From: Spirochaetia bacterium | Lineage (GTDB): Bacteria; Spirochaetota; Spirochaetia; SP-2023 | DNA length: 64,000 nucleotides | Reading direction: 5' to 3' | NCBI GenBank assembly: GCA_965263295.1 | Contig: OZ253665.1 | Span: 2,343,851 to 2,407,850, forward strand | Part shown: one piece after another, positions 42,081 through 45,034 of the stretch | Layout of the letters: every line of letters begins with the position of its first letter | Numbering within the stretch: position 1 is the first letter of the stretch | The notes under the pieces: model-generated | Databases searched by the model: none | The model's input: only the letters and a program-made list of their open reading frames with translations | What the model was told of the DNA's origin: nothing | Translations under genes and position numbers: made by a program

Positions 42081-43340
42081 CTAGCTGATACGATACAGTT
42101 TCCTGATTTTATCCAATTCTTCATCTTCTACCGCGCTAATCGACAGTTCGCGCTTCATGTCGGCAAAAGCTTCCAGGGTTCTGGCGACATGCTGCTCGCT
42201 GTGTGCTGCCGTAGGAACCAGGCGGAACATGACCAGACCGGGAGGAATCACGGGATAAACCACGCCCGTAACGAAAATGCCCTTTTGCCGCAGATAGCTA
42301 AACATCCTGGCGCCGATCTCGTGGCCGCGTGCCGTCGAGGCATAGACGGCACACAATGGCGACTCGCCGTAACCAACCGTGTAACCCAAGTCGCGCAGAC
42401 CTTGTTTCAAAGAGTTTGAGCGCTGCCACATAAGTTCGCGACGTCGATCTTCAGTGCGCAGTAGATGCAAGGTTCGTTGCAGCGATTTGACATAAATCAT
42501 CGGTAGGGACTTTGCAAACACTTGAGTGCGGGCATTGAAAGCAAGCCAGTCGCAAACTTCCCGCTGTGTGGCGGCAAAACCACCGATTGAGGCAAAGGCC
42601 TTGGCAAAGGTCCCCAGCACGATATCAACTTTATCCTGCACGCCACAGTAATCGGCCGTACCGCGCCCGTGTTCCCCCATAATGCCAACTCCATGGGCAT
42701 CGTCGACAAACAGGCGGGCTTTGTATTGATCTTTCAGCGCACAGATATCCTTGAGCCTGGCGATGTCGCCCGTCATGCCATAAACACCTTCAATGGCGAT
42801 CAGCGTGCCTCCTGTCCGCTCTGTGCCGAGACTCTTCAACACGCTCTCAAGATCGTCCGGGTCGTTGTGGCGGAAAAAGCGCAGTTTAGCCCGTGAAAGA
42901 AAGGCGGCATCCAAAATGCAAGCATGGGCCAGTTTGTCGACGATGATAGTGTCCCCTGGACCGGCCAGAGCCGATATCGTCCCCATCACGCCCATATAGC
43001 CGAAGTTAAACAAAATGGCCGCCTCTTTGTCCTGCCATTCGGCAAAAGAATGCTCTAAAGCAATGTGCTCCGAAGTATTGCCACTCATCATACGTGAACC
43101 CATCGGTGCACTGACGCTGTGGGTTTCCAAAGCCTGACGGGCCGCGTCTTTAATACTGGGTTCAGCGGCTAAGCCCAGATAATTATTGACCGACCACATA
43201 ATATAGTTCTGGCCCTTATAGTTCATCTCTGCTGCGGGAATTGAGTCCAGCACAGGACGCGCGACCCCCAGCGGATCATTTTTGCGATACTCACCGAAAT
43301 ATCCGCCATCGCCACGACACTTGTCGAAAATATCTACCAT
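42081..43340 (-). CDS. PLP alpha-oxoamine synthase, probable cysteate-C-fatty acyltransferase (SulA/CapB/CFAT type)
   Basis: WSVNNYLGLA, PMGSRMMSG, NFGYMG, HACILD, VDDAHG, GTFAK (PLP Lys), FAKSLPM, YPVIPPG..FRLVPTAAH; GGAG RBS before ATG 43340; adjacent to a cysteate synthase gene. Confidence 0.8.
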   Translation of the reverse strand: MVDIFDKCRGDGGYFGEYRKNDPLGVARPVLDSIPAAEMNYKGQNYIMWSVNNYLGLAAEPSIKDAARQALETHSVSAPMGSRMMSGNTSEHIALEHSFAEWQDKEAAILFNFGYMGVMGTISALAGPGDTIIVDKLAHACILDAAFLSRAKLRFFRHNDPDDLESVLKSLGTERTGGTLIAIEGVYGMTGDIARLKDICALKDQYKARLFVDDAHGVGIMGEHGRGTADYCGVQDKVDIVLGTFAKAFASIGGFAATQREVCDWLAFNARTQVFAKSLPMIYVKSLQRTLHLLRTEDRRRELMWQRSNSLKQGLRDLGYTVGYGESPLCAVYASTARGHEIGARMFSYLRQKGIFVTGVVYPVIPPGLVMFRLVPTAAHSEQHVARTLEAFADMKRELSISAVEDEELDKIRKLYRIS

Positions 43341-43624
43341 GTTCTCCGTACCCAATTAGCAACCCTTTACTTCACTTTGTAACCTCTGCAGTTTAGGCTG
43401 CAGAGTATTGATAATCATTTTACCGCCAAGGCTTGGCCGGCGCCGTAACGGCGTTTCACACTCTGGCTAAAAGCACTTTAGCAGGCATTGAAACAGGCGT
43501 CTGCTTATAAGAGATGAAACGCAAATAGCGAGCAGTCTACAAATTTACCAGAAAATCACCAGTCTTTTTAAACCAAGATTTACAGCAGCTCCCCAGTTCC
43601 ATCTAAGTATACTTGCGCCATAAT

Positions 43625-45034
43625 TTAAAAGCCAAGGAGTTGTTCTACCTGGCGCACCAATTTCTGTTGCTCCGCAGGAGAATCCTGCAGATCCTGCCAG
43701 TCCACAGTACAAGCGGCCTGAACCTCATGGCGTTGCGGGAAGTCTCGCTCCAGCTGTGCCTGCCCGCCTCCCGTCAAGTGCAGTAGCACAGGTTGCTCTC
43801 TGTCGATCTGCTTGCTTCTGACGGCCTGGCGCAGAGCCGCCGCAGCCACGGCGGCAGCCGGCATGATATCTAACCCTTCATGTATGGCAAAGTACTCGCG
43901 CATCTCAATAACTTCATGGTTTTCCACCGCAAAACAGGCGCCGCCAGACTCCTGTAAAACATCGGACAAACCACCGACTACAGTATAAGGTGGATTCCGA
44001 TTGGCCAATACATGGGCCAAGATATTTTTATTTCGTTCCAGACTATCCGTGGCTTCATAGGGTTGAAACTTTTGTTTCCCATCCCTCCAGTGCTCGACTA
44101 CTGGGATGAATGGCGCATTCTGAGCCAACATCAGCGACAACTGATGTTGCTGTGGGATACAGCCGGCCCGCTTTAGGCGCTTATACATGCCGTAACTCCC
44201 AATCGCGCCGGCCCCACTACCAATAGCCTGAAAATAATAGCGATAAGGTTTTGCGTCTGGTCGCTCCTGAAAACGACTAAATTGAGCGTGCAAATAACCC
44301 ACGCCCAGACCATCGCGCCGGGCTATATTTTTTATGCCCCCCTCAGGTAAAAAGTGCGGCGACTGACACAAGACCTTGGCAAGCTCAATTGCCTCGGCAT
44401 ATTCACTCGGCTGATCATCATATTTGTGCGTACTGGCGACAAACACAACTCTAGAATCTGGCATGATCGGCAAAGAAAGCTTCATTTCCTTCAATGCAAC
44501 ATCGGGCACAACCAAAATGACTGGCAGATTTTCGCGCAGAGCCATCTCGGCAAATGCCCGCGCTGTATTTCCCGCCGACGCTACGACCAGAATTCGTTCT
44601 TCCGCACAACTCCCATGCAAATAAGCAAATACGCTGTACGCTTCAAATTCTTTAAAGGTCGCAGAACGTATGTCGCTGCCTGTGCTCGGATGATACCCCG
44701 AAAATAAGATGTCTAAATCTTTCAAACCCAAGTTTCGGGCTATTGCTTTGCTGCGCAGCACTGCCGGCAGGGAAGCTTGTGCAAACGAACGATACACTGG
44801 CAACCAGTCTCGGTAGCGAAAAAAACTGGTATCTTTGCAATCAAAGTTCAAAGCCTGCCAGGCTGCAGGCTTCACAAACCCAGCTGTTTGTCCTTTAATT
44901 GAATTGTATTCGGCCTCCAGTAAGCTTGAATCCCCGCAATCATCACAGTTGAGCCGAAAGGAATTCTTTCTGCCTCTTCCGGGGAATTTCTTTCCACATG
45001 CCAGACAGACATAACGGTAATCGGTGCATGACAT
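43625..45034 (-). CDS. Cysteate synthase (threonine-synthase fold, archaeal/Methanosarcina type)
   Basis: N-terminal CxxC...CxxC; FRYRDWLP, TFKEFEA (PLP Lys), VASAGNTARAF, EGGIKNIARRDGLG, YFQAIGSG, LANRNPPY..VGG. Confidence 0.85.
   Translation of the reverse strand: MSCTDYRYVCLACGKKFPGRGRKNSFRLNCDDCGDSSLLEAEYNSIKGQTAGFVKPAAWQALNFDCKDTSFFRYRDWLPVYRSFAQASLPAVLRSKAIARNLGLKDLDILFSGYHPSTGSDIRSATFKEFEAYSVFAYLHGSCAEERILVVASAGNTARAFAEMALRENLPVILVVPDVALKEMKLSLPIMPDSRVVFVASTHKYDDQPSEYAEAIELAKVLCQSPHFLPEGGIKNIARRDGLGVGYLHAQFSRFQERPDAKPYRYYFQAIGSGAGAIGSYGMYKRLKRAGCIPQQHQLSLMLAQNAPFIPVVEHWRDGKQKFQPYEATDSLERNKNILAHVLANRNPPYTVVGGLSDVLQESGGACFAVENHEVIEMREYFAIHEGLDIMPAAAVAAAALRQAVRSKQIDREQPVLLHLTGGGQAQLERDFPQRHEVQAACTVDWQDLQDSPAEQQKLVRQVEQLLGF

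Follow-up and report, generated by a model that had tools for sequence, protein, structure and literature searches.

The window examined here is a stretch of 64,000 nucleotides from a Spirochaetia bacterium (assembly GCA_965263295.1, contig OZ253665.1, positions 2,343,851 to 2,407,850 of the forward strand). The subject of this analysis is a pair of neighboring genes in the window, which a first-pass annotation had assigned to the biosynthesis of sulfonolipids (capnines). Both open reading frames (ORFs) were found where they had been placed, co-oriented on the minus strand and with 284 bp between them. The source genome (G000) is a single contig (C1) of 2.41 Mb, with a completeness of 92.6% and a contamination of 0.08%. 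The genes and sites of interest, in window coordinates, are the following:

43625..45034, minus strand: cysteate synthase of the archaeal type (TIGR03844), 469 aa, assigned by hidden Markov model (HMM) score and Protein Data Bank (PDB) matches; threonine-synthase fold with an N-terminal CxxC...CxxC pair
44651..44653, minus strand: codon of Lys128 (TFKEFEA), the presumed pyridoxal phosphate (PLP) lysine of the synthase, placed by motif position and aligned with SFKETEA of 9k3c
42081..43340, minus strand: CFAT/SulA/CapB orthologue, 419 aa from the ATG, assigned by PDB matches, models, and the tree
42600..42602, minus strand: codon of Lys247, the PLP Schiff-base lysine of CFAT (Lys250 of CoCFAT, Lys251 of SulA), by alignments and numbering
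42510..42512, minus strand: codon of Lys277, the CFAT-diagnostic second lysine (Lys280 of CoCFAT, Lys281 of SulA), by alignments and tree rows, with its role taken from the available text of PMC9304779
45135..45162, minus strand: putative weak sigma-70-like site upstream of the synthase gene, with 10 of 12 matches in a motif scan (11 sites were found, compared with 6.5+/-2.7 in shuffles)

The motifs that the annotation had quoted for both proteins are all present in the translations. In the synthase, TFKEFEA begins at residue 126, VASAGNTARAF at 151, EGGIKNIARRDG at 231, and NRNPPY at 345, and the CxxC pair consists of CLACG at residue 10 and CDDCG at residue 30. By its role in the threonine-synthase family, Lys128 is presumably the PLP-binding residue. 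In the CFAT protein, GTFAK contains Lys247 and FAKSLPM contains Lys277, which places the second lysine exactly 30 residues after the PLP lysine, as had been claimed. An in-frame TTG lies at 43355, upstream of the ATG of this gene. Neither gene stands out from the genome in base composition: the GC content and the GC content at third codon positions are 0.53/0.59 and 0.51/0.51, compared with 0.51+/-0.05 and 0.55+/-0.08 for the long ORFs. The named organisms closest by CFAT, at 82% identity each, are Candidatus Haliotispira prima and a Spirochaetia metagenome-assembled genome, and the Candidatus Haliotispira prima locus contains the pair and two upstream genes in the order seen here. Because these relatives are spirochaetes and the order of the Haliotispira locus matches, the host is a spirochaete.

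The identification of the upstream gene as a cysteate synthase, and not a threonine synthase (ThrC), is borne out by both profile and structure searches. The protein scores 321.1 bits against TIGR03844 (cut-off 324.9) and 57.8 bits against the best thrC model, and its best PDB match is the cysteate synthase 9k3c (E 5.8e-72), with threonine synthases at 2e-08 or weaker. The sub-threshold TIGR03844 score is a trait of the genus (about 299-321 bits in its four genomes, with 299-309 bits for the three orthologues other than that of the window); 81 of the 86 carriers in the class are above the cut-off. A separate thrC, for which a search had been proposed, is present at C1:2097174-2098298 (260.5 bits, cut-off 167.1). 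By its sequence, the window synthase is assigned to the archaeal/Alistipes type (TIGR03844) and not to CapA; in Alistipes and Odoribacter, an archaeal-type synthase replaces CapA, according to the available part of PMC10191378. The same family includes the Methanosarcina-type cysteate synthase of coenzyme M biosynthesis (TIGR03844; 9k3c), and M. acetivorans, used as a control in the synthase search, was detected. In contrast to the Methanosarcina enzyme, the spirochaete synthase is paired with CFAT, and the spirochaete genome has no sulfopyruvate decarboxylase beta subunit above the cut-off. A coenzyme M route was rejected, with ComE reaching at best 86 bits in the genome for a cut-off of 221.5; ComD was not searched. 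Another use of cysteate is seen in Streptomyces plasmids, where cysteate synthases (L226:6977-8278) lie inside a nonribosomal peptide synthetase cluster with dpgABC.

For the downstream gene, the best PDB matches are CoCFAT (28eh, 318.6 bits, E 4e-94) and SulA (7u7h, 309.4 bits), followed by serine palmitoyltransferase (SPT, 227.4 bits) and Kbl (225.8 bits). The HMM comparison that had been suggested for 42081-43340 places the protein below the cut-off of every SPT, BioF, and Kbl model; with NCBIfam SPT scores of 309.8, 294.3, and 235.7 bits for cut-offs of 500, 640, and 670, respectively, it is not classed as an SPT. All ten first-shell residues of CoCFAT (N52, F113, G114, Y115, H139, C141, H219, T247, K250, and K280; PMC13692747) are kept in the window protein. 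In a quick IQ-TREE tree of 58 rows, which retained 32 of the 70 spirochaete rows and did not include validated CFAT sequences, the window CFAT is nested among spirochaete orthologues within a CFAT clade of 37 rows (SH-aLRT 100), to which four Bacteroidota plasmid rows and one Legionella row also belong. The assignment of the enzyme to the CFAT group is thus upheld by structure matches, active-site residues, and phylogeny.

The second lysine had been proposed as a feature not shared with SPT, BioF, and Kbl, and it is indeed found in 70/70 spirochaete CFAT-type rows and in 0/23 rows of other alpha-oxoamine synthases. Its further description as the sulfonate-selecting residue of SulA proved incorrect. 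According to the available text of PMC9304779, Lys281 sets SulA apart from SPT and has a structural role; the residues that hold the sulfonate in the CoCFAT complex are Asn52, His139, and Lys250 (PMC13692747). Since the K281A variant of SulA binds cysteate normally, the second lysine is diagnostic but structural.

The window pair can also be compared with other known systems. With the system of SulA from Alistipes finegoldii (7u7h; available text of PMC9304779), it shares a TIGR03844-type synthase and an alpha-oxoamine synthase with the PLP lysine and a second lysine 30 residues after it. It differs from it in phylum (Spirochaetota) and in the serine that replaces alanine in the spirochaete PMG[A/S]RM pocket loop, and the spirochaete product and its possible N-acylation are putative. 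CapB/CoCFAT from Capnocytophaga ochracea (28eh, 28fa; PMC13692747) is the best PDB match, and 15 of the 24 positions that discriminate CFAT from SPT, namely those swapped to SPT residues by Pang et al., are CFAT-type; unlike in CapABC, the cysteate would come from an archaeal-type synthase and not from CapA. Bacterial SPT (3a2b, 2jg2) has the alpha-oxoamine synthase fold and the catalytic core in common with the window protein, and six of the 24 positions are SPT-like, but the match is about 90 bits weaker than that to CFAT, SPT has alanine in place of the second lysine, and the two fall into separate clades.

Relatives of these enzymes were also seen in other settings. A CFAT-type gene with the second lysine lies on the Legionella lytica plasmid NZ_CP071528.1 (L220:7995-12866), in an operon that also encodes a 2-phosphosulfolactate phosphatase and, as a 971-codon ORF, a phosphosulfolactate synthase; this CFAT is outside both Bacteroidota and spirochaetes and has a different sulfonate supply. 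In two CFAT relatives from Bacteroidota plasmids (L223:1423-2619 and L224:1423-2622), arginine replaces the second lysine, and they form a separate long branch. The source genome itself contains a second, unassigned alpha-oxoamine synthase (L180:8036-11805, i.e., C1:2226032-2229804), which has cysteine at the Lys277 position, groups with Gemmatimonadota rows, and sits downstream of an FabL-like short-chain dehydrogenase/reductase (SDR) and a polyketide synthase-type enoyl-CoA hydratase. This locus possibly belongs to another amino-acid-derived lipid or signal pathway.

Taken together, with a probability of roughly 80%, the two genes form the committed head of a capnine-type sulfonolipid pathway that is widespread in Spirochaetia. 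The cysteate synthase and CFAT pair is real, belongs to a trait of about a quarter of the sampled Spirochaetia, and very probably makes a 3-ketocapnine. The genes themselves are present at the locus; their chemistry, inferred from characterized orthologues, would proceed as follows. CysD/CysN would activate sulfate, a CysH-type reductase would give sulfite, and SerA/SerC would supply O-phosphoserine. Cysteate synthase would then exchange the phosphate of O-phosphoserine for sulfite to form L-cysteate, which CFAT would condense with a long-chain acyl-ACP, with loss of CO2, to 3-ketocapnine. On the basis of co-occurrence and gene order only, the reduction of this product to capnine is probably the task of a PRK06181-like SDR (C1:560029-560889), and a two-domain VOC protein (C1:2028681-2029805) may act at or near this step. 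The pathway would probably end in an envelope lipid, whether N-acylated, free, or attached to something larger.

The distribution of the pair was assessed in a class sample of 351 Spirochaetia genomes, including the source genome, with a CFAT threshold of E 1e-90 or better. The synthase was matched in 86 genomes and CFAT in 95; 83 genomes have both, and 253 gave a match for neither. Where both occur, they are adjacent and in the order of the window in 74 of the 83 genomes. A phylum sample of 400 genomes gave 20 matches for the synthase and 19 for CFAT, with a synthase in all 19 CFAT carriers, and these matches fall in six families outside class Spirochaetia. The named protein matches are Spirochaetales, Spirochaetaceae, and spirochaete symbiont entries. 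The pair is thus a patchy trait of several lineages, present in about a quarter of the sampled Spirochaetia, and not a feature of one organism. In six loci of family f93 (L156-L161), CFAT is present but the genome gave no match for cysteate synthase, and two of these loci retain nearby cysH-cysD-cysN; such carriers may import cysteate or depend on a different synthase. Among the same-strand neighbors of CFAT in synthase-negative loci, no CapA-type enzyme was found, a result blurred by high-GC shadow ORFs.

The supply of sulfite and phosphoserine was examined in the source genome and in a context sample of 40 hand-picked loci on long contigs. In this sample, cysD-cysN immediately precedes the synthase gene in 13 loci (12 of family f37 and one of f84), and cysD, cysN, or cysH is nearby in 18 loci from four families. 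In the source genome, the sulfur genes are scattered: cysD-cysN is located at C1:597249-600028, a CysH-type reductase gene at 888135-888932, and serC at C1:2030037-2031119, all over their cut-offs, while a serA-like gene at 953953-955107 is under its cut-off. A separate kbl is found within tdh-kbl (C1:1790009-1792313). No NIR_SIR sulfite reductase was matched in the source genome, and no CysK/CysM was found, the only PALP enzymes in the genome being TrpB, ThrC, and the window synthase. Because neither a NIR_SIR protein nor a cysteine synthase was found, cysteate synthase is the evident sink for the sulfite from CysD/N/H in this genome. Of the other genomes with the pair, G003, from the same genus, has two PAPS_reduct genes and no NIR_SIR match, and G503 gave matches for neither PAPS_reduct nor NIR_SIR. 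A motif-only check for lipid A, Kdo, CysK, Dsr, and sulfotransferase genes gave no convincing match, a weak result that is not counted as absence.

A number of observations weigh against the interpretation of the pair as the head of a sulfonolipid pathway. The synthase score lies just below the TIGR03844 cut-off, and the 24 CFAT-versus-SPT positions of the window protein divide into 15 CFAT-type, six SPT-type, and three of neither type. One of the six is the pocket residue Ala82, which is replaced by serine, as in 68/70 spirochaete rows and one Bernardetia row. In the class sample, a synthase match is missing in 12 of the 95 CFAT genomes and a CFAT match in three of the 86 synthase genomes; the related genomes in these counts are not independent, and many families have no match. 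NIR_SIR is present in two of three same-genus genomes (G001 and G002), and the missing sulfite reductase of the source genome may be a gap, given its completeness of 92.6%. A search for an N-acyltransferase elsewhere in the source genome, which the annotation had called for, yielded no candidate. Finally, intact polar lipids have been reported for Oceanispirochaeta M1/M2, and in the available part of that study (PMC11129491), Table S46 contains no capnine or other sulfur lipid. The listed lipids are glycolipids, phosphatidylcholine, phosphatidylglycerol, cardiolipins, and an unknown phospho-sugar lipid. The last of these was considered as a possible sulfonolipid and rejected, since the phosphorus formula is off by 0.0-0.4 milli mass units and the sulfur formula by 1.3-1.7. 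The suggestion that this spirochaete makes sulfonolipids is supported for the two enzymes, by HMM, PDB matches, residues, and tree, with sulfate-activation genes in the gene context of relatives in addition; its last step, a sulfonolipid in the envelope, is a prediction, and the Oceanispirochaeta lipid table has no such lipid.

A CFAT protein (P0024, WP_114629604.1, 'MULTISPECIES ... unclassified Ocean...') that is 58% identical to the window CFAT probably belongs to Oceanispirochaeta M1/M2, because sp., M1, and M2 are the only entries that NCBI has under that node. The same laboratory detected capnine lipids in Labilibaculum with a later method, in positive mode and from m/z 350 (available part of PMC12927429). 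For the main chains iso-C13, C14, iso-C15, and C16, the calculated m/z values of unacylated capnines are 324, 338, 352, and 366, respectively, so free capnines may have been partly below the m/z 350 floor, if the 2024 study shared that range. Other possibilities are that the pathway was inactive in rich medium or that the base was bound to unextracted material.

Other explanations of the two enzymes have to be weighed against the same evidence. It is unlikely, but worth considering, that the cysteate they make is joined to a short acyl thioester, giving a soluble sulfonated aminoketone or amino alcohol that would serve as a signal, osmolyte, or building block and not as a membrane lipid. Such a product would fit the Oceanispirochaeta table and the lack of an N-acyltransferase candidate, as well as the position of the spirochaete CFATs on their own branch beside the Bacteroidota ones, with several fixed differences. 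However, the closest characterized enzymes all take long-chain acyl donors, free iso-C13 and C14 capnines (m/z 324 and 338) lie under the m/z 350 floor, and a family of branched-chain keto-acid dehydrogenase/FabH fusions occurs near CFAT in 8/43 loci from two families. One such protein, of 1113 aa, in which keto-acid dehydrogenase E1 alpha/beta is fused to a lipoyl domain and FabH, is encoded downstream of CFAT in f37 (L139:11851-15192), and a 755-aa relative is encoded near CFAT in f48; the fusion may prime branched acyl chains.

That the acyltransferase is instead an SPT or another small-amino-acid enzyme, with cysteate going elsewhere, e.g., to coenzyme M or an osmolyte, is very improbable. 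The SPT-like residues at six of the 24 positions and the scores of 235-310 bits with SPT models would agree with this assignment, but these scores are far under the cut-offs of 500-670, the second lysine is present in every one of the 70 rows, and the tree groups the rows with CFATs. The adjacency of the synthase in 74/83 genomes and the failure of any sulfopyruvate decarboxylase beta subunit to reach its cut-off (86 versus 221.5 bits) also argue against a separate fate of cysteate, and SPT-residue swaps in CoCFAT never yielded serine activity. There is hardly any room for the synthase being a threonine synthase paralogue or for the stretch being a mis-assembled piece of a Bacteroidota genome. 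Apart from the threonine-synthase fold and a score that misses the cysteate synthase cut-off by 4 bits, which could be cited in their favor, the genome has a separate thrC above the cut-off, the gene nests among spirochaete orthologues, the gene order is common to Ca. Haliotispira prima, and the assembly is one contig with 0.08% contamination and typical base composition.

A capnine pathway in spirochaetes would extend the known range of these lipids. The annotation had described sulfonolipids as characterized mainly in Bacteroidota, and a 2023 review agrees in its available part that bacterial sulfonolipid synthesis is apparently limited to this phylum (PMC10191378). In the available parts of the respective sources, the CFAT table of Pang et al. 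contains Bacteroidota only, capnine is tied to Bacteroidetes (PMC11193023), and the gut-genome survey of Older et al. prioritized 42 Bacteroidota species and one Firmicutes species, and no spirochaete (PMC11525784). The text of the survey available contains no 'spiro' and its searchable supplements no 'Spirochaet', and the terms 'sulfono', 'cysteate', and 'sphingo' do not occur in the available text of a spirochaete genomics preprint (PMC12236494). The literature searches gave no report of spirochaete sulfonolipids, in line with the earlier statement that none was known; some primary papers and phylum figures outside their coverage may mention homologues. The enzymes are therefore known ones, the phylum is new for them in the literature covered, and the product is a prediction from the genes. 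If the pair works like its orthologues, about a quarter of the sampled Spirochaetia make a sphingolipid-like sulfonate, which would change the range of organisms from which the capnine lipids of sediments and animal hosts, settings in which they have a signaling role, might originate. Even in Bacteroidota the later steps are not settled, and for these the conserved neighbors (VOC, SDR, and acyltransferase) supply named candidates.

The two-domain VOC protein is recurrent next to CFAT in the context loci. It was found in 80 of the 351 genomes, 78 of which are CFAT carriers; it lies within 10 kb of CFAT in 58 and is directly convergent with it in 33. A VOC match is missing in 17 of the 95 CFAT carriers, mostly from two families. 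In the source genome, the gene (C1:2028681-2029805) follows serC, an order common to two same-genus genomes. Its named relatives are from Bacteroidota and spirochaetes, and it was found in no viral contigs or plasmids. By sequence, the protein has no match in the PDB. Its predicted model (pLDDT 93.5) matches general two-domain VOC enzymes with 13-16% identity; the best fold match (Z 23.8, root-mean-square deviation 3.0, 267 aligned residues) gives no function. The residues Gln7, Glu68, His283, and Glu332 are conserved in 70 rows and occupy the positions of the metal ligands in glyoxalase I. Because of this placement, the VOC metalloprotein might conceivably act as an epimerase or isomerase.

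Of 561 metagenome VOC loci, which carry no taxon, the best 80 were examined. An SDR is nearby in 35 of these (one single-linkage cluster); 12 have a PF01553 acyltransferase and five a CFAT-like match, and the gene order VOC-CFAT-SDR occurs in two. One SDR from these loci is named Bacteroidales, and the acyltransferase look-alikes are mostly from Bacteroidota; the VOC-CFAT link in Bacteroidota rests on these metagenome loci. A profile built from 28 of the locus SDRs finds its best match in the source genome at C1:560029-560889 (253 bits), with the next at 132 bits. Among 44 author-chosen genomes, the profile reaches at least 190 bits in 15/18 with both CFAT and VOC, in 0/6 with CFAT and without VOC, and in 1/20 without CFAT. 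An SDR between era and RNase Y (C1:1613837-1614694) was rejected as the reductase, with 57 bits compared with 253. The source genome has 11 SDRs, and among the matches listed, the best KdsR score is 205 for a cut-off of 400. The proposed search for a CapC-type SDR thus provided a candidate from gene context, and none over the KdsR cut-off among the matches listed. By eye, the motifs of the PRK06181-like SDR differ from those of the validated Ornithobacterium CapC, and the SDR is not classed as a CapC orthologue. Because several unrelated SDRs reduce ketocapnine in E. coli and are not clustered with cfat (available part of PMC11211663), gene context alone does not settle the reductase. The available text of the BT_0972 paper (PMC9278070) contains no operon information. 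In one VOC-negative genome, a PRK06179-like SDR directly follows CFAT (L164:10231-11040) and is a different reductase candidate.

At L259:3756-5117 and 11 other metagenome loci, mostly Bacteroidota-like, an acyltransferase of about 450 aa from PF01553 is encoded beside the SDR and VOC genes and is a candidate capnine N-acyltransferase. No full-length match to this family was found in the source genome, which has two other PF01553 genes, or in the 44 genomes. From co-occurrence and gene order, the VOC and SDR proteins are candidates for later steps of sulfonolipid synthesis. A more speculative idea, which is rather doubtful at present, is that spirochaetes and Bacteroidota share an old four-gene module of synthase, CFAT, VOC, and PRK06181-like SDR. 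The VOC protein would then perform an unrecognized sulfonolipid step, most likely as a glyoxalase-I-like 3-ketocapnine epimerase or isomerase, and spirochaetes, lacking the PF01553 enzyme that flanks SDR-VOC in Bacteroidota-like contigs, would make a different end product, for example free capnine or a larger envelope molecule anchored by capnine, perhaps in cells that have no lipid A.

Further genes in the window lie downstream of the pair. A GT4-like glycosyltransferase, mannosylglucosylglycerate synthase-like but under the cut-off, and a polyprenyl glycosylphosphotransferase are encoded at 37383-40451, co-oriented and 2-5 kb downstream; these glycosyltransferase genes showed no association with the pair in the other loci compared. 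Closer to the pair, the gene at 41587-42027 begins 53 bp past CFAT and encodes a double zinc-ribbon protein whose C-terminal part has a hydrophobic segment. A relative also follows CFAT in G003, and none was seen in the other loci.

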